In this document: piece by piece, positions 17,265-31,334 of the stretch
Numbering within the stretch: the first letter of the stretch is position 1
How the letters are laid out: each line of letters begins with the position of its first letter
NCBI GenBank assembly: GCA_942491145.1
Contig: CALOBC010000015.1
Location: 52,707-116,706, forward strand
Source of the DNA: Myxococcota bacterium
Lineage (GTDB): Bacteria; Myxococcota_A; UBA796; UBA2385
DNA: 64,000 nt
Reading direction: 5' to 3'
Made by a program: the position numbers and the translations under genes
The notes under the pieces: generated by a model
Database searches by the model: none
The model's input: only the letters and a program-made list of their open reading frames with translations
What the model was told of the DNA's origin: nothing

Positions 17265-17344
17265 GGGGGGCCTCGGGACCCGTGGGCGTCGCGCTGTGCA
17301 CCGGGTCCGAGGGGATCGACCGCCGGGTGGGTGGCGGGTTCCCC

Positions 17345-17416
17345 GAAATCTGCAATTGCGTGCAATTTCCTGCGAGGGCGTGCAATTTGGTGAAAGACGG
17401 GGTGGAAATTGCACGC
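17345..17416. promoter_or_regulatory. Cluster of TGCAATT repeats (3 direct, 1 inverted) in a divergent intergenic region
   Basis: TGCAATT occurs at 17351, 17361 and 17381, spaced 10 and 20 bp. GCGTGCAATTT occurs at 17358-17368 and 17378-17388, with its exact reverse complement AAATTGCACGC at 17406-17416. This is a locally AT-richer patch. Confidence 0.4.
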
Positions 17417-17806
17417 AAGGGACCATCGGCAGTGTGGCCGGGTCGAGGGTCGCTTGTGTCAGGACGGTGTGCTGAGTGCCGTTCAGCACGATGTCTTCGC
17501 GGATCCCCACGCATTGGCGGGGTCCGATCGCCGGGCAGGTGTGGTGCCGTTGCGCGACGCTCCACAACCTTCGACCGGCCGCCCGGGCCGCTGTGCAGGC
17601 CTGCGACCCTGGTGGCCGCCGCGCTGCAGAGGTTGGGGTTGGGCTCGGTCTCGCGGGCCCGTCGGGTTGGCGAGGTGCCGCTTGATTTGTCCAGCGGGCC
17701 AAAGGGACCCGCCTCCATCGCGTCCGTGGGGCCGGTCAGAGCGCCGCGCATCGTCGGTCTGCAACGTCCGGAATATGCCCCCGGCATCGCCTCTCTCCGC
17801 CACACC

Positions 17807-20800
17807 ATGATGCTGCTGGCCAGCGCTGTCCTGGGCCGCTTCCTGGTCGGCGGCTTGGTCTTGGGCTGGATCGGAGCGGCCCATGCCCACCAGCCCGTCA
17901 AGGGGGTGCTCCAGGCCCTCACGACGGAAGACGGGCTGCCCATCAATTGGGTGGCAGCGTTTCTGCAAGACCCGGATGGGGCGCTGTGGATTGGCACCGA
18001 CAGTGGGCTGGTCTGGTACGACGGGGTCGAGTCTGCGGAGGTCCCTGAGCTCGACGGAGTGAGAATTCTCCAGCTCAATATGGATCCCCGCGGGGTCGGT
18101 TGGATCGCATCGAGGGAGACGCTGTGGCGGCTGGACGACGGTGTGTTTCAGCGCGTGCCGATGGAGCCACCGCACCGCGGCATGCCGCTGCACGTGGACG
18201 GAACCGGTGAGGTCTGGATCTCCGGTGATACCGGGTTGACCCGGGTCGACGACCCCAACCGGCACTTGGACACCCCCGATGGCTGTGGGCAGGTTGAGGT
18301 CGGCCAGGGGGCGAGCCTGTGGTGCGCAGGCAGTGGGGTCCCCTTGGCATTGGAGGATGGCGTCTTGCGGGTGTTGCGAGACGTCGCCGGTGCGCCCCTC
18401 CCTGGACCCGAGCTGCTCCGAGACAGCCGCGGCATCAGCTGGGTCCACACGCCCGGTCGTGTTCACCGATATATCCGGGAGGCAGGGGGCTTTCGGGAGC
18501 TGGAGGTTCAGGAGGCGCTGGCCGTCGAAGCGATAGGCATCCTCGAGGCACGCTCCGGCGAGATCTGGATCAACACCGATGACCACAGGGTGCTGGTGTG
18601 GGACGGAGTTGCGCTGCGGGAGCACGCCCGCCTGCGGTCCACCGTTCGCGCGCTCTATGAGGACCGGGAGGGCAGCATCTGGGCGGCCACCCGAGGCCTC
18701 GGAGCGCTCCGGCTGAGCTCGCCCCAGAGCTTCTCGGTGCTGGACAGTGGCTTCGGCGAGGCACCGGTCTGGACCTCGATGGTCACGTCGAGCGGTTCCC
18801 TCATCTTGGCCACCGATGACGGGGTGTTCCAGCGTTCACCATCAGGGGAAATACGCGCTTTGCCCGGGATTGCGAAGGCCTCGGTGTATGCCTTGCATGT
18901 CACCGACGACGGCTCCGTGCTGGTGGGTGGCTACGATGGACTGCACCGATGGACGGGGGAAGCGATGGAGCGCCTGGCCTTTGCTGAGCCTGGCGTGCTG
19001 CTGCGGGGCGGTGTGCTTGAGGACCGCGCTGGACGCATCTGGGCGGGGGGCAGGTACGCCATCTGGCGTTCCGAGGGGCGGGACCAACCGCTGGCGCGTC
19101 TGCCCCTGCCGGTGGAGCTGGGCACCGGCTACCCGGTGGTGGGACCCATTGTGGAGGATCCTGACGGCCAGGTGTGGGCTGCGACAAACGCTGGACTGAT
19201 CCGCTGGGGGGCCGCGGGCGTCGAGGTGTTCAACTTGGGGCCGGTTCGGGGCGTCGCGGTGGGACCCAAAGGGAAGGTCTGGGCGACCCTCGCGAGGGGC
19301 GGCCTCGTCCGGGTGGTGGACGGCGTGGTCCAAGAGCTCGGCGCCGCCCAAGGAATTCCCTCGGGGACCTTACACACCGTGGCCTTCGACAACCACGGCT
19401 CGGTGTGGCTGCCCAGCAACCGCGGGGTGTTTCGCACGAGCGCAGAGGGCTTGGACGCCCTGGCGAGTGACCCGCAGCGAACACTGTTTTTCCACACCTA
19501 CGGCGTCGAGGATGGACTCCCCAGCCTCGAGTGCAACAGCGGCCACCCCGCTGCCATGGTTGACGGGCAGGGTCGAGTCCACATCCCGACCATGCGCGGG
19601 CTGGTGCAGGTGGATCCGGGCGAGCTGCGCCGGGACATGGCTGCACCGGTGGTCACCATTCGACGGGTGGAGGTCGACGGCGAAGCGGTGCCTTGGAACG
19701 GGACCTTGGTGTTGCCCCCCCACGCCCGCTCGCTGGCCATCCACTACTCAGCCCCGGCGCTGCGCGATCCCGCTGGGGTCACCTACCGTTATCGCCTGGA
19801 GGGACACCAAGACGACTGGGTCGAGGCCGAGCGGCGGCGGGTGGCCTTCTGGACCAATCTTGAGGCGGGTACCCACACCTTCCGCCTGCAAGCGCGGAGT
19901 GGCGAGGGGGTGTTGAGCGCCGAAGATGCACTTCTGCCGTTCACTGTGGAAGCCCGACTGGTGGACCGAACCTGGTTTCGGCTGCTGGTTGGCCTCGGGG
20001 TCCTGGCGTTGGGCGCCGTTCTCGTCCGAGTTCAGCTTCACCGCATCCGAGAGCGAGAGCTCACGGCGCTGGTCGATGAACGGACCGCTGAGCTGCGTGC
20101 TGCCCGGGATCGCAGCCGTGAGCAGGCTGCGCGACTGCAGACTCAGGCCCACGAGCTGGAGAAGGTCGATGCCCGCAAGACCCGCTTCTTCGCCAACGTC
20201 AGCCATGAGCTGCGGACGCCGCTGTCGCTCATCCGAGGCCCAGTGAGCGGTGCGCTGTCCTCGGGCCAGTCGCTGGGTCCGGTCGACCTGGCGCGAGTAG
20301 CCCGAAGTGCCCATCGTCTCGAGGTTCTCATTGAGGAACTGCTCGACATCGCGCGGCTTGACGCCGGTCGCTTGCCCCTGCGGGCTCGGGAAGCGGACCT
20401 TGCCGGGTTTGTGGCCGAGCGGGTCGACGCATTTGCCCCGCTGGCCGAGCAGCGGGGGGTGGACCTGAGCTTGGGCAGCGTGCCCGTCACCGCATGGTTC
20501 GACGAAGCACGCCTCGCAAAGGTCGTGGACAACGTGGTGGCGAACGCACTGCGCCACACGGCCGCCGGGGGCACAGTCGATGTGCGCCTGACCACCACGC
20601 CCACCCACGGGTGCATCGATGTGCAGGACTCGGGCAGTGGCATCGCCCCCGAGCACCTGCCCCACATCTTCGACCGCTTCTACCAAGCCCCCGACGGCTC
20701 GGGCGCGTTGTCGGGCAGCGCGGGCCTCGGCCTCGCCTTGAGCCGGGAGCTGGCGCGGCGCCACGGGGGGGAGCTGACGGCACACAGCGAGGTGGGTGCG

Positions 20801-21703
20801 GGCAGCTTGTTCACGCTGCGGCTGCCGCTGGGTCGAGACCACTTGGCCGATGAGGACGTCATCGTGGGTGTCGAGCCGCCCCGCCCGACAGCGCCAGTGA
20901 TCCCCATTGTGCTCCCGGAGGCCGAAGACGCAGCTGCGGCGACGGCGACGGCGACCGTGCTTGTGGTGGAGGACGATGAGGAGCTGCGGTCCTGGATCTG
21001 CCAGGTTCTCCGAGCGCGGTACACGGTGCTGGAGGCCGGGGACGGCGGACAGGGGCTGCAGCTCGCTCGGGCCCACGTGCCCGATGTGGTGCTCACCGAC
21101 GCAGTGATGCCCGTCATGAGTGGGCTGGAGCTGTGCCGTGCGCTGCGCGACGATCCAGCCACCTGCCACCTGCCGGTCGTCATGCTGTCGGCCCGCAGCG
21201 AAGCGGACCGGCGGGTCGAGGGTCTCGCCAGCGGTGTGGATGCCTACCTGGGCAAGCCCTTTCATCCGCACGAGCTGCTGCTTCAGCTCGACAACCTGCT
21301 GGTCGCCCGGTCTCGTCTGCGCGCCCGGCACCACCGCCAGCTCGTCATGGCCGATGACACGCCCGAGCAGGCTTCGGTGGATGATCGATTCCTTGCCCAA
21401 GTGCGCGAGGCCATCCACGCCCACCTGCCCGACGAGGACTTTGGTGTGCGGGGGCTGGCGGACGCGGTCTCCCTCAGCCGGCGACAGCTCGGTCGCAAGC
21501 TGGATGCCCTGATCGGCCAGCCTCCGTCGACCCTCATCCGCCAGATCCGCCTGCAACGGGCCCGCGCGTTGTTGGAGCAGGACGCGGGGAGCATCTCCGA
21601 GGTCGCCTACGCAGTGGGGTTCCGTCGCCCGGGGCGCTTCAGTGAGCAGTTCAAGGCGGAGTTCGGCATGACCCCCACCGAGTTCAAGGCGAGCCAGGGG
21701 TGA
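17807..21703 (+). CDS. Hybrid two-component system: periplasmic propeller/Y_Y_Y sensor, HisKA-HATPase, receiver, AraC-type HTH
   Basis: ATG at 17807 opens a signal/TM segment (MMLLASAVLGRFLVGGLVLGWIGAAHA). About 730 aa of repeated G.(V/L)W.GT..GL propeller-like blades follow, then a TM segment (LLVGLGVLALGAVLV). Next come the H-box SHELRTPLS, a REC domain (VLVVEDDEE...LTDAVMP) and a C-terminal AraC HTH. Confidence 0.8.
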   Translation: MMLLASAVLGRFLVGGLVLGWIGAAHAHQPVKGVLQALTTEDGLPINWVAAFLQDPDGALWIGTDSGLVWYDGVESAEVPELDGVRILQLNMDPRGVGWIASRETLWRLDDGVFQRVPMEPPHRGMPLHVDGTGEVWISGDTGLTRVDDPNRHLDTPDGCGQVEVGQGASLWCAGSGVPLALEDGVLRVLRDVAGAPLPGPELLRDSRGISWVHTPGRVHRYIREAGGFRELEVQEALAVEAIGILEARSGEIWINTDDHRVLVWDGVALREHARLRSTVRALYEDREGSIWAATRGLGALRLSSPQSFSVLDSGFGEAPVWTSMVTSSGSLILATDDGVFQRSPSGEIRALPGIAKASVYALHVTDDGSVLVGGYDGLHRWTGEAMERLAFAEPGVLLRGGVLEDRAGRIWAGGRYAIWRSEGRDQPLARLPLPVELGTGYPVVGPIVEDPDGQVWAATNAGLIRWGAAGVEVFNLGPVRGVAVGPKGKVWATLARGGLVRVVDGVVQELGAAQGIPSGTLHTVAFDNHGSVWLPSNRGVFRTSAEGLDALASDPQRTLFFHTYGVEDGLPSLECNSGHPAAMVDGQGRVHIPTMRGLVQVDPGELRRDMAAPVVTIRRVEVDGEAVPWNGTLVLPPHARSLAIHYSAPALRDPAGVTYRYRLEGHQDDWVEAERRRVAFWTNLEAGTHTFRLQARSGEGVLSAEDALLPFTVEARLVDRTWFRLLVGLGVLALGAVLVRVQLHRIRERELTALVDERTAELRAARDRSREQAARLQTQAHELEKVDARKTRFFANVSHELRTPLSLIRGPVSGALSSGQSLGPVDLARVARSAHRLEVLIEELLDIARLDAGRLPLRAREADLAGFVAERVDAFAPLAEQRGVDLSLGSVPVTAWFDEARLAKVVDNVVANALRHTAAGGTVDVRLTTTPTHGCIDVQDSGSGIAPEHLPHIFDRFYQAPDGSGALSGSAGLGLALSRELARRHGGELTAHSEVGAGSLFTLRLPLGRDHLADEDVIVGVEPPRPTAPVIPIVLPEAEDAAAATATATVLVVEDDEELRSWICQVLRARYTVLEAGDGGQGLQLARAHVPDVVLTDAVMPVMSGLELCRALRDDPATCHLPVVMLSARSEADRRVEGLASGVDAYLGKPFHPHELLLQLDNLLVARSRLRARHHRQLVMADDTPEQASVDDRFLAQVREAIHAHLPDEDFGVRGLADAVSLSRRQLGRKLDALIGQPPSTLIRQIRLQRARALLEQDAGSISEVAYAVGFRRPGRFSEQFKAEFGMTPTEFKASQG

Positions 21704-22141
21704 CGGCGGCCGCCAGGTGTGCCTGGGGACTGGGCCGCGCCTGAGCTGGAGCAGGCTGGTGGGACCCGCGTCTTGGGGTCTCGTTGGTGAGCTGCGTGTG
21801 GTTGCCGGACCGGTCGGATGTGGATCGGCGCAGCAGGTTCGAAGGGCTCCTCCTTCGGCGCATGGTGCGGGGGCTGCTGGCAGGGCGCTGCAGCCTGGGG
21901 CCACAGTTGGGCGTGCGCCAGGCGGGGCAAGCTCGATCCTCCCCGCTGGCACTGCCGTCGATCTCATGCCCCATGTCGAGCCCATTCAGGGCCCAGTGTA
22001 CCCCGGCTCGGGACATCGCTTGGCCAGTTTGGGGACATGGACAGAATCCAGCCAAGTTCGTCCCACCCCACACCCAGGGCTGGTCGTAGAACTCATGCAT
22101 CGCCGCCGACGCGGCATCACCCCCACCCCAAAGGAGAGACC

Positions 22142-22192
22142 ATGAAGACCAAGACCCGCGTGAAGGCTGGCGGACAGCTCACGAACATCTGA
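22142..22192 (+). CDS. Mini-ORF A1: 16-aa Gly-Gly peptide precursor MKTKTRVKAGG-QLTNI
   Basis: ATG follows AAGGAGAGACC. Fourteen of 16 third positions are G/C, and the ORF ends in TGA. It is identical to A3. Confidence 0.65.
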   Translation: MKTKTRVKAGGQLTNI

Positions 22193-22228
22193 GACCCTAC
22201 CCATCCACCCCCACCAAGAGGAAGGACC

Positions 22229-22278
22229 ATGAGACCAAGACCCGCGTGAAGGCTGGCGGACAGCTCACGAACATCTGA
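22229..22278 (+). pseudogene. Mini-ORF A2: same sequence as A1/A3 with a 1-nt deletion (ATGAGACC versus ATGAAGACC); frameshifted
   Basis: As written it reads MRPRPA*. The downstream 45 nt are identical to A1/A3 but have no in-frame ATG. Confidence 0.55.
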
Positions 22279-22314
22279 GACCCTACCCACCCATCCCCAC
22301 CAAGAGGAAGGACC

Positions 22315-22365
22315 ATGAAGACCAAGACCCGCGTGAAGGCTGGCGGACAGCTCACGAACATCTGA
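22315..22365 (+). CDS. Mini-ORF A3: 16-aa peptide MKTKTRVKAGG-QLTNI
   Basis: ATG follows AGAGGAAGGACC. The sequence is nucleotide-identical to A1. Confidence 0.65.
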   Translation: MKTKTRVKAGGQLTNI

Positions 22366-22401
22366 GACCCTACCCACCCATCCCCACCATGAGGAGAGAC
22401 C

Positions 22402-22455
22402 ATGAAGACCAAGTCTAAGATGAAGGCTGGCGGCGTCGTCTGGGACGGCAGCTAG
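22402..22455 (+). CDS. Mini-ORF B1: 17-aa peptide MKTKSKMKAGG-VVWDGS
   Basis: ATG follows GAGGAGAGACC and the stop is TAG. The peptide is conserved with B2 although the flanks are unrelated. Confidence 0.65.
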   Translation: MKTKSKMKAGGVVWDGS

Positions 22456-22471
22456 CGCTTCCCCGGGCTCT

Positions 22472-22500
22472 CTGAACTGTTCAGGCAGTTCCTGGAACTG
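22472..22500. promoter_or_regulatory. Two adjacent palindromes between mini-ORFs B1 and B2
   Basis: CTGAACtGTTCAG lies at 22472-22484 and CAGTTCCtGGAACTG at 22486-22500. GAACTG (22474-22479) can also pair with CAGTTC (22486-22491). Confidence 0.3.
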
Positions 22501-22545
22501 TCCCCGTGTTCGAGCACCAACCCACCCAAGACCACTGGAGAACCC

Positions 22546-22599
22546 ATGAAGACCAAGTCCAAGATCAAGGCTGGCGGCGTCGTCTGGGACGGCAACTGA
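22546..22599 (+). CDS. Mini-ORF B2: 17-aa peptide MKTKSKIKAGG-VVWDGN
   Basis: ATG follows TGGAGAACCC and the stop is TGA. It differs from B1 by TCT/TCC (synonymous), ATG/ATC and AGC/AAC. Confidence 0.65.
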   Translation: MKTKSKIKAGGVVWDGN

Positions 22600-22605
22600 G
22601 ATCTC

Positions 22606-22643
22606 CCCAGGGCCCCTCCGACCGAGTCGGGGCGGGCCCTGGG
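22606..22643 (+). terminator. GC-rich stem-loop immediately after the last mini-ORF
   Basis: CCCAGGGCCC (22606-22615) pairs with GGGCCCTGGG (22634-22643). An inner CTCCGAC/GTCGGGG stem has a 3-nt loop, giving about 17 bp with one bulge. There is no T-tract, which is common in high-GC genomes. Confidence 0.55.
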
Positions 22644-22824
22644 ACCGTCCGTCTGGCGGCACCCCCATCCAGCGCCCCACGCCGTGGGGTTTCTGTTCCT
22701 CCCTCACGCTGCGCGCGGGGGAGGTCTGTGCGTCTTGGGTCTGGTGGACGGGTCCACTGATGGATTGCGCGGCCCGTTGACATCGGTCCGGGGCGTCGGG
22801 CACTCTCATTTGGACGTGTGTCGC

Positions 22825-22851
22825 GAGAATGACTGTCTAATCAGTGTTCTC
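22825..22851 (-). terminator. Imperfect hairpin about 27 nt downstream of the ABC operon stop
   Basis: GAGAA..ACTG-tctaat-CAGT.TTCTC in an AT-richer patch at the convergent junction. The stem is weak and there is no U-tract. Confidence 0.2.
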
Positions 22852-22877
22852 GGGCTGATTCCGAAAGGGCTGGCACC

Positions 22878-24980
22878 TCAAGGATGGGCGATCACCACCA
22901 ACGCCTCCGCCCTTCGCTGCACTGTGGCCATGGCTCGGCGAAGGCTGGCTGGGTCCAGCGCAGCAAAGCTCTCATCCAGCACGATGACGTCGGAGTCCTG
23001 AAGCAAGGTGCGGGCGATGTAGAGCCGGCTCTTCTCGCCATGAGACAGCCGCCAGCCGGTCTCGCCCACGAGCTGCATCAAGCCGCCGGGCATGCGCTCA
23101 ATGAGCCCACCGAGGCCCAGCTCTTCGCAGATGGTCTGTGCGAGGGCAATGTCGCTGGGCGCTGGCGGCCACGCACGACCCATGAGCAAGTTGAACAGAA
23201 AGGTGTTGGCCAGCACGTGGTTGTCGTGGAATTGGGGCGCACAGCTTGTGACCCGACGCCAGCCCGCTTCGCCCAAGGTGGCGCGGTCCAAGCCGCCGCT
23301 GAGCACCAGGCCCGCCGAGGGTGCCCGCAAGCCGAGGAGCACCGCAGCGAGTGTGGACTTGCCGCCGCCTGAGCTGCCCGTGAGCAGGATCCGATCCCCG
23401 CGCTGGATGGTCAGCGAGCAGCCCCGGAGCACGGGCGCACCGCCGGGGTAGGCGAAGTCGACCTTGCGCACCGAGAGGAGCCCGTCGGTCGGCGCAGCGA
23501 TGACCTGGGCATTGGCCTCGCCGTGGGTGATGGGGCGGCCGGCAGCATCGTAGAGCGGGCGGACCTGGGAGACGGCCACCACGGCCCCCGACAGCTGGGT
23601 CATGCCGAGTGACAGGGCGTGCAGCGCCCGGCCGGCGAGCAGCACCCCCCCGAGGGCGACGGCGATGCGGGTGGACGACGCCCCGAAGACCAAGAGCTGG
23701 CCTACGCCGGCGAGCCCCACGAGCATCCACCCCCGAGGCAGGGTCACCCGGAGGTGCGCGGCCGTGGCATCCAGCGCCGCCGAGGCCCTGAGATAGGCGC
23801 TCAGTTCGTGGTCTTCACCATCGTGGTGCCGTTCCGGGGGTTCCTGGGCGAGGCGGGTGCGGTGGCCGGCCATGCGCTCCACAAGGGAGCCCGTCATGGA
23901 GAGGCGTGCGGCTGTCCACACGCGGTGGTGGCGGAGGTGGCGAGTGCCGACAAGGGCCAGAGTGCCGATCCAGCCGAGCAACAACAGGGGCAGCATTGGG
24001 CCGCCAAGGGAGAGCACCCACGAGGCGCCCACCAGCTCCAGCAGCGCCAGGGCCGCGGCCACCCCACCGCTCAGCGCGAGCTGCTCCATGGCCTCGGCCT
24101 CGTTGACCCGGCCCATGGTCAGGCCAATGCCATCGCTGCGGCACTCATCGGGCTGCATGCGCAGCGCCCCGACCAACAACCGGCGCTTGAGGAGCGCCCC
24201 GCCTTCAATTGCCAGCACTCCCTGTGCCCAGGTGGTGAGCTGGCGCAGCGGCACCGTGGTGAGCAGCAGCAAACCCCAGGCGAGCAGCCAGCCCGACTGC
24301 AGCGCTCCGTCCAGCGCCGCCTTTCCCACAAGAGCCCATGCCAACACGAAGATGACGTACTGGGTGAGATGGGCGACAGCGACCACCCCACCCTGGCGCA
24401 GCAACTTTGACTCCTTGAGCTGAGCGGTCAAGCTGGCTGACGGGGGCAGCCTCAGCATCCACAAGCCCGAACAGGGGGCACCAGCGAGGCGCTCGGCCAA
24501 GAGGGCCCGCCGGGCGCGGTCTCTTCGGCGCCCAGGGGGCACAGTGCCGTCGAGCAGGGCGTCGATGCCCGGTCCAAAGCGGTCTTCGAGGGGTGCGGAG
24601 AGGGCCGCGCGGAGTGCTTCCACAGCCACCCGCTGGCGACGGCCGTCCGGGCCAATGAGGGTGGCTTGGCGGCCGCGACGACCGACTGATGCGAGCAACA
24701 GCAGGCGCTTTGGTCCCGGTTCGGGGAGCATGAGCAGGGCGGGCGCGACGTGCTGGAGGGCGTGGGTGAGGTCCCCGTACGCGGCGACCAGCGGCTCCAC
24801 TTCCAGGCCCGCCCGCCCGGCGGCCACGTCGAGCCAGTCCTCCAAGGCGCCGTCGGGGAGGGCACCGGGGGGATCTGCGATCCGGGTCGGGGCCTGCCCC
24901 CCGTACCCACCGTGCGCGGCGAGCACATTGAGGGCTTGGCCGAGGTTAACGACAGACCACTGGCACGGGTCCAGACTCAT
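22878..24980 (-). CDS. ABC transporter permease/ATPase, the second ABC of the export cassette; no C39 catalytic motifs
   Basis: The ATG overlaps the upstream stop (ATGA). It has Walker A GSSGGGKST, signature LSHGEKSR and Walker B VIVLDESF. A roughly 170-aa N-terminal extra domain lacks the Cys/His peptidase motifs. Confidence 0.8.
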   Translation of the reverse strand: MSLDPCQWSVVNLGQALNVLAAHGGYGGQAPTRIADPPGALPDGALEDWLDVAAGRAGLEVEPLVAAYGDLTHALQHVAPALLMLPEPGPKRLLLLASVGRRGRQATLIGPDGRRQRVAVEALRAALSAPLEDRFGPGIDALLDGTVPPGRRRDRARRALLAERLAGAPCSGLWMLRLPPSASLTAQLKESKLLRQGGVVAVAHLTQYVIFVLAWALVGKAALDGALQSGWLLAWGLLLLTTVPLRQLTTWAQGVLAIEGGALLKRRLLVGALRMQPDECRSDGIGLTMGRVNEAEAMEQLALSGGVAAALALLELVGASWVLSLGGPMLPLLLLGWIGTLALVGTRHLRHHRVWTAARLSMTGSLVERMAGHRTRLAQEPPERHHDGEDHELSAYLRASAALDATAAHLRVTLPRGWMLVGLAGVGQLLVFGASSTRIAVALGGVLLAGRALHALSLGMTQLSGAVVAVSQVRPLYDAAGRPITHGEANAQVIAAPTDGLLSVRKVDFAYPGGAPVLRGCSLTIQRGDRILLTGSSGGGKSTLAAVLLGLRAPSAGLVLSGGLDRATLGEAGWRRVTSCAPQFHDNHVLANTFLFNLLMGRAWPPAPSDIALAQTICEELGLGGLIERMPGGLMQLVGETGWRLSHGEKSRLYIARTLLQDSDVIVLDESFAALDPASLRRAMATVQRRAEALVVIAHP

Positions 24981-27571
24981 GGCTGGTCCTCGACCAAAAT
25001 GCCGTCATTCAAGGACACATTGCGCCAGTCCATGCCGGCCCAGGATGCGCCTTGCAGCGCTGCCTCCGCGTCCATCAGCTGCCGGTAGCGAGAGGGGCCC
25101 GCGAGGAGCTCCGCGGGGGGAGCGGCCTCGACCACCCGGCCGTCTTCGACCACCAAGACTTGGTCAAACCCGAGGGTGTGGTCGATGTCATGGGTGATGC
25201 ACAGCAGCGTGGCGTCTCTCCAGTGGCGTCGGGCCACACCGAGCAGCGCCCGGCGCCGGTCCCGGTCCAGCCCCCGAAAGGGCTCGTCGAGAATGGCCAG
25301 TCGTGTGGGGCCCCGACTGAGCGCTCGGCCGAGGCGCACCCGCTGGCCCTGTCCGCCGGAGAGCCGTCCGCCCCCCTCCCCGAGGGAGGTCTGCAGTCCG
25401 TCGGGGAGGCGATCGAGGACGTCCATGAGGTCGGCGTCTTGGAGGGCCTGCGCGACTGATTGTTCCGGCGGTGCGCCATAGCGGAGGTTGTCGAGGAGGG
25501 ACCGGTTCCAGAGCTGGACCTCGGGGTCCACCCAGGCCGTGCACCGTCGGAGCGCCGCCACCCGCGCGGGGTCCAGGGCTTCCTGGTTCACCGAGAGGGT
25601 GCCGCTGGCTGGGCGGTGCCACCCGAGCAGCAAGCCCGCCAGACTGGACTTGCCCGAGCCCGAGGAACCCACAATGGCGACATGACAGCCCGCGGGAATG
25701 TTGATGTTTACGTTGTTCAGGATGGTCTGTCCGCCGGCCACCACCGACAGGGCTTCGGCCTGGATGGCCACCGCGCCGTTGCCGGGCAGCGTCCCTGGTG
25801 CGTCGGCAGCACTCGCCGACTCCGGCGCCAGAAGTGGCTCCAGCAGGCGCAACAGCACACTGCGCATGGCCGGGTATTGGCGGGTGGCCACGGCCACTTG
25901 CTGACCGTAGGCTGGAAGCGCGAGCGCCCAATAGATGAGCAGCAACCCGCCCTGGTCAGCGGCGAAGAGGGCGACCAAGCTGGCCGCCACCGCAAGGCCC
26001 ACGCTGGCGATGAGACCCTCGAGGAGGACCGCGGTGCGCTGCAGGGAGAGGCCCGCGTGGCCCCACTCCACCAGCCGGGCCGCGTGCTCCCGTCGCAGCG
26101 CTCGCTCGGCCCCGTGGCTGCGAATGGCTGCGAGGCCCAGCAAGGCGTCGAGGTAGAAGCGGCTCAAGGCACCGAGGTGCGCTCGCTGACGCAGGTCCTG
26201 CTCGGCCAGGAGGGGATGGCAGAGCAGCGGCAAGCCCACTGCGACCACCGCCGCGAGCAGTGCGAGGGGGGCCGCGGCCGGTGCCAGCCAGATGATGCCC
26301 GCAGTGGTCAGCACGAGGCGGGCGACGCCCTGAAGCAAGCTCTGGCCCGCCTGGGGCACCCGTCGCAGCAAGTGTGTGGCGTGGCTGCGCTCGGCCATGT
26401 CCGAGATGAGGCGGCTCTGGAAGTAGTGGTCCGGGAGCCGAGGCAGCTTCGTCATGAAGGCCAGACGAAGTCGAGCATCGAGGGCCCGCCCGGAGTCGAG
26501 CACGCCACGGGTGACTTGCAGCTCCAGGAACACACCCACCGCCACCAGCGTGATGACGGCCGCGAGGGCACCGACTTGGTTGAGGGGCACCGGCATCAGG
26601 GTGCCGAGCTCCAGCAGCCCCCGCAACAGCAGTGCTTCGAGGAGCACCGTGATCGCCGAGACAGCGAGCGCCCCCACCAGCACGGCGGGCGCGAGCAGCC
26701 CGTCCTCGGCCAAGTACCTTCCCAAGGACCGCAGGGGTGCAGGCTCGGGCTCGCTCAAGGCAGCACGCAGCTCGGGGCCCAAGCTGGCCTCGTCCACGTC
26801 GGCCCGTCCGCTGGCCCGTACCAGCACTGCGCCGCGGAGGAGGAGCTGAGGGTCCCCCTCTTCGTCGGGCTCGGTGGGCTGCACCGACCACGCACTGGGG
26901 GAGATGGTGGATGGTTCAGCCACGAGCTTGACCAAGGCCCCGTGGGCTTCTGCGCCCCGCCTTAGACCGCCAGCGGCGACCACCGAAGCCACCATGCGGG
27001 TGGCTGCGTCTAGGCGGGCGAGGCCACCCCAGCTGGGATCGGCCAGCGCGGAAGCGCTCAGTGCTGCGGCGTCTTCGCCACCGATGGCCCGCAGACGGGC
27101 GTGAAGCGTCGCCTGGAACTCCTGGTCGCCGGCCCACTCCCGCCAGTCGGCCGCCGGCACTGGCAGGCTGTGCTTGTAGAGCAGGTCGAGCAGGTCGCTT
27201 CGGCGCAACCAGCGTCGGCCCACCGCCGGGTCCATCACTTGGACGAAGGGGCCCACTACCGACCAGACCACCACGAAGTGGGAGACCCCGCTGGGCGTGC
27301 GGATGACCACAATGGCGGGCAGTGCGTGGGCCTCGGGCAGCAGCACGTGGTCTGCTGGGAGCATCACCTCTTCGCACGCCAAGCCAAGCTGGGTGGCCAC
27401 CTCTTCCATTGCGGAGATTGATGTGCCGTCCACGTCCGTCTGGCAGGCTTCCCGCAGGCGGGCGTAGCTGACAGGCAGGTGGAAGCCGGCGAGCAGCGCG
27501 GTGAGGGCGGCCGGCCCGCAGTCCATGCCGGAGGTCTGGATGACCTCGGGAACCAGTCGGCGGGCGCTCAT
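24977..27571 (-). CDS. Peptidase-containing ABC transporter (C39 double-glycine peptidase, TMD, NBD)
   Basis: The ATG at 27571 overlaps the HlyD stop (ATGA). C39 triad contexts are GMDCGPAAL (Cys), VSHFVVVW (His) and VMDPAVG (Asp). It also has Walker A GSSGSGKSS, signature LSGGQGQR and Walker B LAILDEP. Confidence 0.85.
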   Translation of the reverse strand: MSARRLVPEVIQTSGMDCGPAALTALLAGFHLPVSYARLREACQTDVDGTSISAMEEVATQLGLACEEVMLPADHVLLPEAHALPAIVVIRTPSGVSHFVVVWSVVGPFVQVMDPAVGRRWLRRSDLLDLLYKHSLPVPAADWREWAGDQEFQATLHARLRAIGGEDAAALSASALADPSWGGLARLDAATRMVASVVAAGGLRRGAEAHGALVKLVAEPSTISPSAWSVQPTEPDEEGDPQLLLRGAVLVRASGRADVDEASLGPELRAALSEPEPAPLRSLGRYLAEDGLLAPAVLVGALAVSAITVLLEALLLRGLLELGTLMPVPLNQVGALAAVITLVAVGVFLELQVTRGVLDSGRALDARLRLAFMTKLPRLPDHYFQSRLISDMAERSHATHLLRRVPQAGQSLLQGVARLVLTTAGIIWLAPAAAPLALLAAVVAVGLPLLCHPLLAEQDLRQRAHLGALSRFYLDALLGLAAIRSHGAERALRREHAARLVEWGHAGLSLQRTAVLLEGLIASVGLAVAASLVALFAADQGGLLLIYWALALPAYGQQVAVATRQYPAMRSVLLRLLEPLLAPESASAADAPGTLPGNGAVAIQAEALSVVAGGQTILNNVNINIPAGCHVAIVGSSGSGKSSLAGLLLGWHRPASGTLSVNQEALDPARVAALRRCTAWVDPEVQLWNRSLLDNLRYGAPPEQSVAQALQDADLMDVLDRLPDGLQTSLGEGGGRLSGGQGQRVRLGRALSRGPTRLAILDEPFRGLDRDRRRALLGVARRHWRDATLLCITHDIDHTLGFDQVLVVEDGRVVEAAPPAELLAGPSRYRQLMDAEAALQGASWAGMDWRNVSLNDGILVEDQP

Positions 27572-28734
27572 TCGGGAGACGGCAGAAGGCGCTGCCCAGC
27601 GGCCCGCAGTGCGAGGGCGGCGGGGCTCAGCCGCTCCAAGTCCACTTCGACGACCCCCGGCAAGCCATGGGCGAGCGGAATCTGGGAGGGCGCTGCGGTC
27701 GGATCCAGCTCGAGCTCTATTCGAAGGCCACTGGCATCGGGCTCGCTGGCGACGGCGGTGACACGGACGGGGACCATCCCGAACTGGCTCCACGGAAAGC
27801 CATCCAGCCGCATTCGGCCCTCGGCACCCGGGGTGATGCGGCCTGCCACAACGAGGGGAAAGGTTGCGACGGCATGCAGCGTGTCGACGGGCACCACTGA
27901 GGCAACCGGTGCTCCTTTCGACACTCGCATGCCTTGTGCCAGCATTGCGAGAGCGCCCACAATGCCGTCGCTGGGGGCCAGAATGCGGTGTCGCCCGACG
28001 GCACCATCGAGGGTGTCCCGTCGGGCCTCGCAGGCGCGGAGGTCGGCAGCCTGGGCCGCCGCGTGGCCTTGGCTCACCACCACATCGACCTGGCGGTCCA
28101 GGCTTGTGGCGCTGGCGGACCCGCGCTGGTGTTCGACAATCCAGGCCCGGGCTTGGGCTTCAGCCTGACGCTGCCTTGCCTCCCCGACCCGTGCCGCCAC
28201 CTCCGCCTCGGGGGCGGTCCCTTCGATGCCCAGGCGGGCCGCACGGTCGGCATCTTGGGTGGCCAGCTTCGCCACCTCGTCCGCCGCGCTGGCGCTGCGA
28301 AGAGCTCCTTGGACGGCGGCATCGCCGGAAGAGGCCGCCGCAGCCCGGGCTGCTTCTTGCACCGAGACCGCAGCGTTGGCGGCCCGGGCTTGCTCCCGGA
28401 TGCTCTCGCAGCGGCTGGTCTCGGCCGCGAGGGCGAGCACGGCGTCGGTGTCATCGAGCTGGATGAGCAGATCGCCAGCCTGCACCGCCTGTCCCAGTCC
28501 CACCGCGACGCGCACCACCACGCCGTCGAATGGCGCGCTGAGCTGGCGGGGATGGCCAGTGGACTCCAGGCGAGCTTGCGTGGAGGCCGCCTGGATGGGC
28601 ACTTCCGCGAAGAAGAACCACGCCGACCAGCCGGCCAGAAGGCCCATTCCCAGGACGGCGAAGCCGGCCGTGGCCAAGCGGTGCAGGCGGTCGCGGTGGA
28701 GCGCTCGGAGGGTCTGGGAGAAGGCAGACGGCAT
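27568..28734 (-). CDS. HlyD-family membrane-fusion / secretion adaptor protein
   Basis: Probable ATG at 28734 (MPSAFSQTL...). It has an N-terminal TM segment (FAVLGMGLLAGWSAWFFFA), a long Ala-rich coiled-coil, and a C-terminal beta-barrel motif (ILAPSDGIVGAL...GAPVASVVP). Confidence 0.8.
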   Translation of the reverse strand: MPSAFSQTLRALHRDRLHRLATAGFAVLGMGLLAGWSAWFFFAEVPIQAASTQARLESTGHPRQLSAPFDGVVVRVAVGLGQAVQAGDLLIQLDDTDAVLALAAETSRCESIREQARAANAAVSVQEAARAAAASSGDAAVQGALRSASAADEVAKLATQDADRAARLGIEGTAPEAEVAARVGEARQRQAEAQARAWIVEHQRGSASATSLDRQVDVVVSQGHAAAQAADLRACEARRDTLDGAVGRHRILAPSDGIVGALAMLAQGMRVSKGAPVASVVPVDTLHAVATFPLVVAGRITPGAEGRMRLDGFPWSQFGMVPVRVTAVASEPDASGLRIELELDPTAAPSQIPLAHGLPGVVEVDLERLSPAALALRAAGQRLLPSPE

Positions 28735-28792
28735 GGCCGAACTGTACCGGATGGCGGCCGCGGGATGACAGCTTGAACCGGTAGTACGTTGT

Positions 28793-28808
28793 AGCACCTG
28801 TACTGCCG
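28793..28808 (-). promoter_or_regulatory. Sigma-54-like -24/-12 element upstream of the HlyD gene (weak candidate)
   Basis: The minus strand reads CGGCAGTACAGGTGCT against consensus TGGCACG-N4-TTGCW. GG and GC have the correct 12-nt register, and the element lies about 60 nt upstream of ATG 28734. There are three mismatches, and no enhancer-binding protein is in the window. Confidence 0.2.
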
Positions 28809-28836: not shown

Positions 28837-31203
28837 TCAGCCGCCGCCTTGTCCACCGCCGCCTTGACCGCCGCCGCCTTGACCGCCGCCGCCTTGACCG
28901 CCGCCGCCTTGACCGCCGCCGCCTTGACCGCCGCCGCCTTGACCGCCGCCGCCTTGACCACCGCCGCCTTGTCCACCGCCGCCTTGAGGTCCACCACCCC
29001 CGCCGCCTTGTCCGCCGCCGCCTTGTCCGCCGCCGCCTTGACCACCGCCGCCTTGACCGCCGCCGCCTTGACCGCCGCCGCCTAGACCGCCGCCGCCGTG
29101 TCCACCGCCGCCTTGACCGCCGCCGCCTTGACCGCCGCCGCCCTGAGGTCCACCACCCCCGCCGCCTTGTCCACCGCCGCCTTGAGGTCCACCACCGCCG
29201 CCGCCTTGTCCACCGCCGCCTTGAGGTCCACCACCGCCGCCGCCTTGTCCGCCGCCCTGGGGTCCTCCCCCACCTTGGCCACCACCGCCCCGGTTGCCAC
29301 CACCTTGCGGCCGGTCCTGGCCCGAGCCTCCCTCCGGCTCCTCTTCAGCTTCCGGACTGGGCTCCGGCTCCAAGCGCCGCAGCGGAGCCCGATAGCCAGC
29401 CGCGCCCCACGGCAAGCTGGCCACGATCAGCTCGTCCACCACCGCGACGTCCACCGCATCGGGCACCCGCCACGCCGGCTCACCGTCGGCCCACAGACCC
29501 ACCGCGCCCCGGTCGGTCTGCACCACCGCGCCCCCGGTCCACGTCACAATGCTCCGCACCTGGGCCCCCACATCCACCGGGCCGATGCCCCCTGGCGGCT
29601 GGACAAAGCGGCCCGAGATCATCCATCCCACCAGCGGTGCGCCCGGCGGCGGGGGACTGCCCACCGAGTCCAGCGGGCCTTCGGTCTGCCAAGTCACCAG
29701 CCCCTTGCCGGCGCCCAGGTGGCCCCCTTCGAACACTGCCTCGGCGCGTTGGCCGGCCACCACGATCTCGTACGAGCTGCGCTCCGTCAGCCGAATCGAC
29801 TGGACCGGCCCCGGCAAGGCGATCTCTTCGGGACGGTGGCCCTTCGAGCTGTTGCGCAGCAAGCGATGGCCGAGACCGAGCACAATGCTGCCGTCGACGT
29901 CGATCAGCATGTCTGAGCCGGGCCCCGGTGTGCGCTTCCAACCTGGGGTCAGCTCCGGTGCGCTCGCCACGGCGTGCAGGGGGTCCGCGGCGCCCGCCAG
30001 CTTCACCAGATCATCGCGGATCAGCACGGTGCTCGGTCGGCCGCTGCGCTCCCCCACCAGCATCCCATCCGCGTCGGTGTAGACCACCGTGGCTCCCGCT
30101 GTGGGGGCCACTTGGAGGGAGGGCTGGCTCACCAGACGCAGCCCCTCCACGCACGGAGTCCGGCTGCGCTTGAGCTGACGCAGGCGCAGGTCCCACGCTG
30201 CGAGCTGGGCCGCGTCTGAGGCGACCAGGATCACCCCCCCGTGGCACGCCGGAGCGCCGGGATCTCCCATCCACGCCTCGGGCCCGTCCGCCGGGAGGGG
30301 CTGGAGCACGACGGCCAAGGGGGCGCCCACGTCGGCCACGATGGACCGATTCACCATCACAACCTTGGGCTTGTGGCCCTCCCACCGGCCGGGTGCTTCG
30401 GTGTCTTCGGGGTCGCTCTCGGGCATGCCGAGCGCCCAGGTGCGCAGAATGTCACCGGTGCGCCATGCGGCCAGGCGGGCCTGTTCCAGCTCCCAGCCGG
30501 CCGCCACCGCCAGGGTGGAGGGCAAGGGGGTGCCGGTGGTGCAGCGGGACGCGTCCATGCGCCCCAGCAGCAGGGCATCGCTGAAGGGCCAGCGGTCGAC
30601 CGGGGGCAACAGCGGGCAGCCGGTGGTGGGGTCCAGCGCCAAGCGGGCACTGCCGAAGTTGATCGCCAGCGCGCCGTCTTCGGTCCATGTGGGCCGGTCC
30701 ACGGGCAAGGTGCGAGACGCGGCCCCTCGGGGGTCCACCCGCAGCACGCTGCCCGGCTGAAGCACCCACACCACGCCATCTTCGTCAATGCGCACATCGA
30801 GCGGTGGCGTGCCCAAGGACTGCACAACCGGGGGCTGATCGCCGTGGACCCGCATGATCTGGCCGAGCCACTGGGGGCCCTCCCGTCGACCGGACCACAC
30901 CACACCCACGCCGTCCCGCACGACGCCACCCAGGACGGTGCCACCGATCCGGGCCACCTCCTCCAGCCGTTTTGTGCCGAGCCAGACCGCGCCGCCGGCA
31001 TCCACAGCCAGCGTGGACTCGCCCCGCTGCTCCGTGAGGATCGCGGACTTGAGCACACGGGCGCGCGACGCCGCTTGGCTGGGCGCACCCCCAAACCCCC
31101 CGAGCCCCGCGAGGACCAACATCCGCAGCGTCCGAGCCGCCGTTCGTTGCGGTCTCTGGCGTCCCACCGAGGGCGCGGCGGGCTCCACCGAATGCACACC
31201 CAT
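28837..31203 (-). CDS. Secreted 788-aa protein: propeller-like N-terminal region plus a C-terminal (GGGGQ)n low-complexity tail of about 160 aa
   Basis: ATG at 31203 follows AGGAGA. The N-terminus is signal-like (RMLVLAGLGGFGGAPSQAAS). Repeated G.VW motifs occur (GAVWLGT, GVVWSG, GVVWVLQ). The frame runs continuously into the Gly/Gln repeat. Confidence 0.6.
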   Translation of the reverse strand: MGVHSVEPAAPSVGRQRPQRTAARTLRMLVLAGLGGFGGAPSQAASRARVLKSAILTEQRGESTLAVDAGGAVWLGTKRLEEVARIGGTVLGGVVRDGVGVVWSGRREGPQWLGQIMRVHGDQPPVVQSLGTPPLDVRIDEDGVVWVLQPGSVLRVDPRGAASRTLPVDRPTWTEDGALAINFGSARLALDPTTGCPLLPPVDRWPFSDALLLGRMDASRCTTGTPLPSTLAVAAGWELEQARLAAWRTGDILRTWALGMPESDPEDTEAPGRWEGHKPKVVMVNRSIVADVGAPLAVVLQPLPADGPEAWMGDPGAPACHGGVILVASDAAQLAAWDLRLRQLKRSRTPCVEGLRLVSQPSLQVAPTAGATVVYTDADGMLVGERSGRPSTVLIRDDLVKLAGAADPLHAVASAPELTPGWKRTPGPGSDMLIDVDGSIVLGLGHRLLRNSSKGHRPEEIALPGPVQSIRLTERSSYEIVVAGQRAEAVFEGGHLGAGKGLVTWQTEGPLDSVGSPPPPGAPLVGWMISGRFVQPPGGIGPVDVGAQVRSIVTWTGGAVVQTDRGAVGLWADGEPAWRVPDAVDVAVVDELIVASLPWGAAGYRAPLRRLEPEPSPEAEEEPEGGSGQDRPQGGGNRGGGGQGGGGPQGGGQGGGGGGPQGGGGQGGGGGGPQGGGGQGGGGGGPQGGGGQGGGGQGGGGHGGGGLGGGGQGGGGQGGGGQGGGGQGGGGQGGGGGGPQGGGGQGGGGQGGGGQGGGGQGGGGQGGGGQGGGGQGGGGQGGGGQGGG
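28840..29300 (-). repeat. 15-bp tandem repeat (plus-strand unit GCCGCCGCCTTGACC) encoding (GGGGQ)n
   Basis: About 30 units are present, including a run of about 7 perfect copies at roughly 28860-28960. Variants encode GGGGGGPQ, GGGGH and GGGGL. Confidence 0.9.
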
Positions 31204-31334
31204 GCGGGTCTCCTGAACCGATTGACGGCTCCACCCTACAACGCGCTCTGCCCGAGGCGCTTGCCCGTGAGCAGCGGCCGGTCTATCGTGCCGCCTCGAC
31301 TGCCCTGCTCATGCAGGGGGAGGACCGCTCCACA

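Follow-up and report, generated by a model that had tools for sequence, protein, structure and literature searches.

Tandem mini-genes with a ten-residue cationic Ala-Gly tag beside a C39 peptidase-containing ABC exporter: a putative minimal leader peptide in Myxococcota and other phyla

A stretch of 64,000 nucleotides from a Myxococcota bacterium (GenBank assembly GCA_942491145.1, contig CALOBC010000015.1, positions 52,707 to 116,706; this whole stretch is referred to here as the window) contains five tandem mini-genes next to the genes of a peptide exporter. The mini-genes appear to encode the substrates of this exporter, which is type-I-secretion-like and consists of a HlyD-type adaptor, an ABC transporter with a C39 peptidase domain (ABC1), and a second ABC exporter subunit (ABC2). 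The first ten residues of each peptide would serve as a self-contained, strongly cationic tag for export and cleavage. Most likely the C39 domain of ABC1 cuts after Ala(-2)-Gly(-1), so that the next Gly is residue 1 of the product and the cell releases unmodified hexa- and heptapeptides (GQLTNI, GVVWDGS, and GVVWDGN) to the outside. Judged from sequence, this reading of a ten-residue export and cleavage tag, cut after Ala-Gly to release GQLTNI and GVVWDGS/N, is given a probability of about 0.55. Leader peptides exported by peptidase-containing ABC transporters (PCATs) are already known; the minimal cationic leader ending in Ala-Gly appears to be new.

The array is located at 22142-22599 on the plus strand and includes four intact mini open reading frames (mini-ORFs) and one frameshifted copy:

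22142-22192, plus strand: mini-ORF 1, the feature under study, an ATG...TGA frame that fits the strict family motif given below; ten-residue leader MKTKTRVKAG and six-residue core GQLTNI (whole peptide MKTKTRVKAGGQLTNI)
22229-22278, plus strand: copy 2, frameshifted by a 1-nt deletion in codon 2; its translation is MRPRPA followed by a stop
22315-22365, plus strand: mini-ORF 3, the same sequence as mini-ORF 1 (MKTKTRVKAGGQLTNI)
22402-22455, plus strand: mini-ORF 4, leader MKTKSKMKAG and core GVVWDGS (whole peptide MKTKSKMKAGGVVWDGS), with a core of the Trp(+4) class
22546-22599, plus strand: mini-ORF 5, leader MKTKSKIKAG and core GVVWDGN (whole peptide MKTKSKIKAGGVVWDGN), with a core of the Trp(+4) class
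22606-22700, plus strand: likely terminator of the array found by a terminator scan, a GC-rich hairpin (22606-22643) and then a U-tailed hairpin (22674-22690)

A Shine-Dalgarno site is found before each copy. In mini-ORF 1 it is GGAGAG at 22133-22138, located 4-9 nt 5' of the ATG. As DNA, the array is a tandem repeat with a period of 87 and 3.3 copies. Apart from the M/I and S/N substitutions, mini-ORFs 4 and 5 differ only at synonymous sites. Copy 2 reads ATGAGACC where ATGAAGACC is expected. One A is gone from the AA run of codon 2, which points either to a pseudogene of recent origin or to an assembly error at a homopolymer. In mini-ORFs 4 and 5 an in-frame stop codon is found 3-6 codons 5' of the ATG (3 codons for mini-ORF 4) with no start codon between them. 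Because in-frame stops closely precede these two copies, the leader of ten residues in the window has no longer form. The hairpin region that follows the array folds at -56.3 kcal/mol (z = -2.9), and it likely ends the peptide array between two convergent transcription units.

Homologues of ABC1 number in the thousands at about 53% identity. A scan of one genome per species identified at least 558 loci with such a homologue. From these, 80 loci were kept with 10-kb flanks. They were picked solely for encoding an ABC1 homologue and span Acidobacteriota, Chloroflexota, Myxococcota, Planctomycetota, Verrucomicrobiota, Rhodothermales, and Gammaproteobacteria; Methylomicrobium lacus, a cultured species, is among the sources. 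The window and the 80 loci (1.54 Mb), translated in all six frames, were searched with a strict motif, [MLVI][KR][VTIAL][KR][TSA]x[VILMTAC][KRQ][AS]G. It has 202 matches, versus none in the reversed-sequence control. Besides the window, 50 of the 80 loci encode peptides with the strict motif, and another 5 have variants with one deviation. The family consensus of the ten residues is M-K-(V/T/I)-K-(T/S)-x-(V/I/L)-K-A-G, and the window form of the tag is M-K-T-K-(T/S)-(R/K)-(V/M/I)-K-A-G with a net charge of +4. The peptide of the cultured relative is found as follows:

NZ_CP169217.1, about 633.1-633.5 kb (locus L063, 7005-7399): Methylomicrobium lacus 22M6SE5-12, peptide ALTQNRCETFRR

Shine-Dalgarno sites are found ahead of 97 of the 103 distinct copies. 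The third positions of the leader codons are far more variable than the first and second positions; for the codon at -1, for example, the entropies of the three positions are 0, 0, and 1.70 bits. Because the motif beats the control, ribosome-binding sites are present, and the variation is synonymous, the sequences indicate that the mini-ORFs are translated genes and that strong purifying selection acts on their first ten codons. The mini-gene that the initial annotation had proposed at 22142-22192 is thus real, an exact ATG...TGA frame with its own Shine-Dalgarno site. It could be argued that these are not genes and that the tandem repeat of 87 nt is non-coding or an RNA element, with accidental ORFs, as the array is indeed a DNA tandem repeat and small ORFs are common in DNA of 70% GC. 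Against this, the motif is kept across phyla with the synonymous variation, ribosome-binding sites, and empty control mentioned above, and an Rfam scan of 21500-23000 found no family match. This explanation is effectively refuted.

By sequence comparison, the tag is common to a large and unannotated peptide family in Acidobacteriota, Chloroflexota, Myxococcota, Verrucomicrobiota, Rhodothermales, and Gammaproteobacteria. Scans of Pfam and NCBIfam with the window peptides (padded with X), longer relatives, and multi-cassette precursors gave nothing above noise. When ten relatives were looked up exactly in a collection of 15 billion proteins, eight had not been called as genes and none had a name. 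A full-text literature search, with most subscription journals outside its reach, found the family undescribed. One resemblance was examined and set aside. The cassette leader LKVKSSVKAG (query residues 108-121) aligns with the N-terminus of type-B ribosomal protein L36 at E = 7e-4, with 19.5 bits versus a cutoff of 70. It is judged to be a chance likeness between short basic strands.

The cargo after Ala-Gly has between 3 and more than 50 residues, most often 6. Two loci of Anaerolineales encode variant tags, MKVRTNIEAG and MKVKTGIESG (locus L023, at about 6978, and locus L049, at about 6988, both on the minus strand), joined to a cargo that exceeds 50 residues, RGLGDAIADLAHLTGLD...CGCD.... 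These fusions suggest that the tag is able to carry small proteins too.

Positions of the tag were also left free, one pair at a time. With -2 and -1 free, Ala-Gly is found in 90 of 101 copies, Ser-Gly in 6, and Cys-Gly in 1. With -9 and -7 free, both are Lys or Arg in 90 of 97 copies. With -4 free, 90 of 116 copies have Val, Ile, Leu, or Met, and most of the others have Thr or Ala. At -6, 89 of 90 copies have Thr or Ser. The residue that follows Ala-Gly obeys no such rule. It is Gly in 48 of the 202 matches and otherwise Ser, Ala, Gln, Glu, Phe, Thr, Pro, Leu, or others. A first scan had used Gly-Gly as the family anchor and required [AGS]GG after a start rich in Lys and Arg. It reached only about 8 loci, and the relaxed scan showed tandem mini-ORFs with the conserved ten residues in most loci.

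A second register mark is found within the cores. Trp is located at +4 from Ala-Gly in 56 cores of 24 loci (e.g., QSVWGT, SALWGS, NIIWTP, MAIWGT, and FAVWGG). It is never found at +3 and only once at +5. The locus with the most similar transporter (L081, 58% identity) encodes MRTKSRVRAG followed by GDAWAG. GVVWDGS and GVVWDGN of the window and GDAWAG of this relative are in register with the Trp class only if the leader ends at Ala-Gly and the first Gly belongs to the core. The Gly-Gly of the window therefore reads as the invariant Gly(-1) next to a variable +1 position, which here is occupied by Gly, as both the conservation of Ala-Gly and the spacing to Trp indicate. The initial annotation had taken Gly-Gly as the defining element, and these counts do not support it. 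It had placed 11 residues before Gly-Gly, where there are actually 9 (11 is the length through Gly-Gly); its count of four Lys/Arg ahead of Gly-Gly is correct. It had also assigned Lys to -4 and Val/Met/Ile to -5, which is true in the Gly-Gly register and is an artefact of one residue, since Val, Ile, or Met sits at the canonical -4 when counted from Ala-Gly. In this register a basic residue is found at -7, and -12 and -15 do not exist. Recognition would therefore keep only the hydrophobic residue at -4.

The exporter is encoded on the minus strand by an operon, hlyD-abc1-abc2, which converges on the array:

27568-28797, minus strand: HlyD-type membrane-fusion (periplasmic adaptor) protein of 409 residues; Pfam HlyD_3, HlyD_D23, and Biotin_lipoyl_2
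24977-27571, minus strand: ABC1, peptidase-containing ABC transporter of 864 residues, whose domains are, in order, C39, an extra one of about 150 residues, the transmembrane domain, and the nucleotide-binding domain
22878-24980, minus strand: ABC2, ABC exporter subunit of 700 residues; Pfam ABC_tran, with a degenerate C39-like N-terminal domain

The 3' end of the operon is 279 nt away from the array. Start and stop codons of the three genes overlap, that is, the genes are translationally coupled. The true start of ABC1 is at 27571 and overlaps the stop of hlyD, and the start of ABC2 overlaps the stop of ABC1, in both cases in ATGA. The HlyD adaptor accompanies the ABC pair in 48 of the 81 loci. 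In 16 loci, mostly of Chloroflexota (e.g., L072, 9397-9981, and L013, 4250-4813), a single-pass membrane protein of about 170 residues (cluster c4) replaces HlyD upstream of ABC1. This swap may mirror a different cell envelope.

ABC1 matches Peptidase_C39 of Pfam with 72.6 bits (cutoff 22), and it also matches ABC_membrane and ABC_tran. Its C39 domain aligns to Cys21/His99/Asp115 of PCAT1. All 118 aligned homologues keep the corresponding C18, H98, and D114, and at least 90% keep the oxyanion Gln. An AlphaFold2 model of ABC1 has a predicted local distance difference test (pLDDT) score of 85, and its best Foldseek match is PCAT1 (6v9z; E = 4e-31, template-modeling scores 0.63/0.74). A single ABC1 chain thus combines a C39 domain, the transmembrane domain of a type I exporter, and a nucleotide-binding domain, and its modelled fold is like that of PCAT1. 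The N-terminus of ABC2 matches the C39 profile with a probability of 97.3% in hhalign and has no Cys/His/Asp triad; the catalytic His is changed to Arg and the Asp to Pro. Since the triad of ABC1 is invariant and the C39 residues of ABC2 are replaced, the exporter is, on sequence grounds, a heterodimeric PCAT with one intact and one dead peptidase domain, plus the adaptor. The C39 domain is mildly acidic, with a family mean net charge of -3, a value that is uninformative on electrostatic complementarity with the tag. Residues ~140-290 of ABC1 form a confidently modelled extra domain (five helices and a beta-hairpin) between the C39 domain and the first transmembrane segment. It is absent from PCAT1 and kept in the alignment of 118 sequences. 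This domain could have a part in recognizing the very short leader.

Relatives of the mini-genes include long precursors in which the tag is repeated. They are found in several Acidobacteria, one Verrucomicrobiota genome, and one Myxococcales genome:

L008 5351-5974, 6317-6910, and 6987-7730; L012 7389-7931; L015 1255-1839, 4634-4900, and 7306-8169; L043; L058: multi-cassette precursors (proteins P0121-P0240)

These precursors start with MKIKTNVKAG and repeat a unit of LKVKTxVKAG, a core of 3-25 residues, and NHNQTxxRG up to 8 times, the last cassette being without the follower. The cores often have Cys pairs, for example CNPSDCG and CPEWGCG. A database search with one precursor gave 249 homologues, all named 'hypothetical' and with no Pfam domain. 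The AlphaFold2 model of one precursor is disordered, with a pLDDT of 46.6 and no secondary structure. The idea that the cassette proteins are folded beta-solenoids with Ala-Gly as a turn is ruled out by this score and by cores of 3-25 residues between invariant flanks, while Ala-Gly may still be a structural turn in single hairpin-sized peptides. The anatomy of the cassettes is that of leader-core repeats and not of a folded repeat protein, which argues that the ten residues are a signal for processing and export. From its reuse in these precursors, the tag seems to behave as a portable module. A cytoplasmic protein of the TPR_12 type (~400 residues) co-occurs with the NHNQT precursors.

Cleavage after Ala-Gly is the most economical reading, because the triad of ABC1 is invariant and its partner ABC2 shows what an unused C39 domain decays into. 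Several points weigh against it. About 30 of the 80 transporter loci are without a strict-motif peptide within 10 kb. Ala at -2 is outside the documented C39 motifs GG, GA, and GS (PMC10885120). Moreover, LahT fails on leaders with a basic -7 residue or without a -12 residue (PMC6363468), and Pro, an awkward P1' residue for many proteases, is found at +1 in some relatives. All four intact window peptides carry the canonical Gly-Gly in an AGG context, and Gly(+1) clusters by lineage (4 of 4 in the window, 3 of 3 in L004, 8 of 9 in L012, and 8 of 10 in L015). These last observations, together with Gly at -2 in the documented sites, would fit a canonical cut after Gly-Gly that frees QLTNI, VVWDGS, and VVWDGN from an 11-residue leader with its hydrophobic residue at -5. 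Such a cut is quite unlikely. Family-wide, Gly follows Ala-Gly in less than a quarter of the matches and in none of those from 15 multi-copy loci. The Trp peptides of the window would also fall out of register with the other cores, and Lys would be placed at -4, where a charged residue, like one at -7, is not tolerated by LahT and abolishes processing (PMC6363468).

The initial annotation had offered a Gly-Gly cut and a second reading, in which the whole 16-17-mer is the product. The uncleaved peptide could be, for example, a cationic hairpin with a K-A-G turn, exported whole or kept intracellular, with its N-terminal half as the active part. Its alternation of K/V/K/T/x/V/K before Ala-Gly is in keeping with this, as are the Ala-Gly and basic -7 that are non-canonical for C39 enzymes (PMC10885120, PMC6363468). 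The fixed spacing of Ala-Gly to Trp could equally be explained by a structural turn of an intact peptide, and some cores have merely 3-4 residues (RRK, KKAQ, and LRIA), perhaps better suited to an uncleaved product. Set against these are the Cys, His, and Asp that are invariant in 118 homologues, whereas non-cleaving HlyB-type systems have degenerate C39-like domains such as that of ABC2. The part after the tag is hypervariable in both sequence and length, and the tag is reused inside cassettes of a protein predicted to be unstructured, which is a pattern of leader plus cargo. An uncleaved product is therefore considered unlikely. Neither of the two earlier readings is the best one, as release of hexa- and heptapeptides by a cut after the invariant Ala-Gly fits better.

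The proposed system shares its outline with the C39 leader systems of PCATs, or AMS proteins (ABC transporters for maturation and secretion), such as ComC/ComA, class II bacteriocins, colicin V/CvaB, lanthipeptides/LahT, and CtA/PCAT1. As in these systems, a small precursor is handled by a C39-ABC exporter with Cys/His/Asp, and behind a conserved N-terminal part that ends in two small residues the sequence is hypervariable. Position -4 is hydrophobic (in the Ala-Gly register), and the adaptor is of the HlyD type as in Gram-negative members. The canonical C39 motif is GG, GA, or GS with hydrophobic residues at -4, -7, -12, and -15 (PMC10885120). The benchmark used by the initial annotation, hydrophobic residues at these four positions, agrees with PMC10885120 and PMC6363468. 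Its main claim, that the leader is far shorter and more cationic than any characterized double-glycine leader, holds as well. The leader has 10 residues, compared to ~15-30 or more in double-glycine leaders. In LahT, the last 13 leader residues are needed, and this is the minimal element known there (PMC6363468). The conserved pair of the tag is Ala-Gly, unlike GG, GA, or GS (PMC10885120). Position -7 is Lys or Arg in more than 90% of copies and -12 and -15 are missing, so the tag is without the amphipathic-helix pattern of hydrophobic residues at -4, -7, and -12. Its net charge of +4 differs from the acidic residues in the logo of Haft 2010 (PMC2887384). The residues alternate in a strand-like manner and would not form an amphipathic helix, and the putative products have 6-7 residues. 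This alternation of hydrophobic and basic residues suggests, as we infer it, that the tag is bound in an extended or strand-like form rather than as an amphipathic helix. Among leaders of this kind, the tag is probably the shortest.

The architecture is that of NHLP/Nif11 export, which has the same three genes (TIGR03794, HlyD-like; TIGR03796, ABC with peptidase; TIGR03797, ABC without; PMC2887384). Its models are the best-scoring ones of NCBIfam for ABC1, and its precursors also exist in paralogous arrays near the transporter, with a known leader that ends in V-A-G-G. The window proteins are far below the cutoffs of these models (193.7 versus 853.3, 117.7 versus 709.4, and 22.6 versus 156.2 bits). 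The leaders of NHLP/Nif11 have ~70-90 residues compared to 10 here, and neither TIGR03793 nor TIGR03798 matches the 16-17-residue peptides or their longer relatives. ABC1 also differs by its extra domain of about 150 residues, and ABC2 by the degenerate C39-like domain that it retains.

The multi-cassette relatives, which are found outside the window, resemble the cassettes of cyanobactin PatE-type precursors and yeast alpha-factor, where recognition sequences flank hypervariable short cores. Unlike in these precursors, the N-terminal element is the same ten residues that serve as the entire leader of the single-cassette peptides. Unlike cyanobactins, the relatives have no subtilisin genes of the PatA/PatG type but a C39 ABC transporter instead.

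With respect to the product, the system recalls the signal peptide proposed for HetC of Nostoc (PMC10986499), EbfG of Synechococcus (PMC4997328), and Gram-positive pheromones. As in these, the putative product is tiny, of the 5-8-residue size of pheromones, and sensor and regulator genes are nearby. The likeness to HetC and EbfG lies in a very small gene product that would be exported by a peptidase-ABC transporter in a diderm. The substrate of HetC in Nostoc is still unknown (PMC10986499). EbfG proteins are larger and have ordinary Gly-Gly motifs. The regulators found here differ as well. They are a hybrid histidine kinase with an AraC-type domain in the window, and a Ser/Thr kinase with an FHA-sigma-54 activator in Acidobacteria.

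Most plausibly, the peptides would act as extracellular signals for neighbouring regulators. Besides the transporter genes, the recurrent neighbours of the peptide arrays are FHA-GAF-sigma-54 activators (18 loci), Ser/Thr kinases fused to beta-propellers (20 loci), and in some cases histidine kinases or response regulators. FtsX-type permeases are also recurrent, as are, together with the NHNQT class, TPR proteins. A sigma-54 promoter, TGG[CT]A[CT]-N5-T[TC]GC, is found within 200 nt 5' of 19 peptide ORFs in 13 arrays, where about 0.3 is expected by chance; the motif occurs 31 times in the entire 1.5-Mb set. Nearly all arrays preceded by this promoter encode Trp-class peptides beside an FHA activator. 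The arrays of Acidobacteria are the following:

L019, L021, L026, L027, L036, L038, L055, L071, L075, and L076: arrays with the sigma-54 promoter TGGCAC-N5-TTGCA (e.g., L071, 19913-19977)

In these Acidobacteria the promoter is located 28-70 nt 5' of the first Trp-class gene. The array is divergent from the FHA-GAF-sigma-54 activator and near the Ser/Thr kinase-beta-propeller gene. This setting points to secreted peptides that are tightly regulated and possibly self-sensing, and a signalling role appears plausible from the gene neighbourhoods.

In the window, a different type of regulator is found upstream of the array:

17282-21703, plus strand: hybrid two-component sensor/regulator; Reg_prop beta-propeller, Y_Y_Y, HisKA, HATPase, REC, and AraC-type helix-turn-helix (Pfam, NCBIfam)

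This gene shares the strand of the array and ends 438 nt upstream of it; its true start is probably downstream of 17282. On adjacency only, it is a candidate regulator or sensor for the array. No equivalent of it is found at the 80 other loci, and the signalling link in the window is thus adjacency to a non-conserved gene, which counts against this part of the proposal. Upstream of the window peptide genes, the promoter scan found no sigma-70-like promoter, and the sigma-54 pattern is absent within 200 nt. The stretch 21690-22145 has no direct repeats that would convincingly serve an AraC-type regulator.

The peptides might instead be precursors of RiPPs (ribosomally synthesized peptides with post-translational modifications), modified before export by enzymes encoded elsewhere, or bacteriocins, that is, small antimicrobials rather than signals. 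Both are usual clients of PCATs (PMC10885120). Tandem arrays with hypervariable cores recall the diversification of prochlorosins, and the many cassette cores with Cys pairs could form disulfide loops. No family of modifying enzymes or immunity-like genes recurs near the window array and in the 80 loci, although enzymes encoded elsewhere might act on the peptides. Identical cores, for example SALWGS, recur across different species-level genomes, unlike those of fast-evolving toxins. Unmodified peptides of 6-7 residues are also short for membrane-active toxins. Modified or antimicrobial products are thus improbable, and unmodified signals released by a cut after Ala-Gly are preferred here.

A wider reading can be put forward tentatively, although it is more doubtful than the cleavage itself. 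In several phyla of diderm bacteria, the cationic 'KAG' tag might be the full recognition element of a previously unrecognized secretion and signalling system, in which a specialized heterodimeric PCAT would bind it in a new, non-helical mode and cut after Ala-Gly. The signals, passed between cells, would have 4-13 residues, including conserved Trp hexapeptides such as SALWGS and the cassette products, and would be read by pairs of a Ser/Thr kinase and an FHA-sigma-54 activator in Acidobacteria or by the hybrid two-component/AraC sensor in this genome.

If the proposed cleavage is true, the tag is the shortest and most divergent leader known for a PCAT, recognized without the hydrophobic 'knobs' at -7 and -12 and with Ala at -2. 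A tag of ten residues is possibly useful for secretion or for the traceless release of short peptides. The transporter is found in at least 558 species-level genomes, yet the peptide genes are largely invisible to annotation. The system is a testable candidate for peptide cell-cell signalling in Acidobacteria, Myxococcota, and Chloroflexota, phyla with almost nothing known of such communication. The multi-cassette relatives would be uncommon bacterial precursors of repeated, prohormone-like design.

Another gene of the window is located beside the exporter operon:

28837-31203, minus strand: ORF of 788 residues, 40 nt upstream of hlyD, with a signal-like N-terminus, no Pfam or NCBIfam match, and a GC content of 0.86 at third codon positions in frame

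Its C-terminal tail of ~130 residues is (GGGGQ)n, encoded by a 15-nt tandem repeat (20.9 copies, 28840-29146). In the 80 other loci, the transporter has no equivalent beside it. The ORF may be an accessory gene, co-transcribed and lineage-specific, and its link to the system is uncertain. Divergent from this ORF, a protein of 743 residues (31311-33542, plus strand) has five FG-GAP repeats and five putative metal-binding motifs of the MopE type, with no evident link to the peptides.

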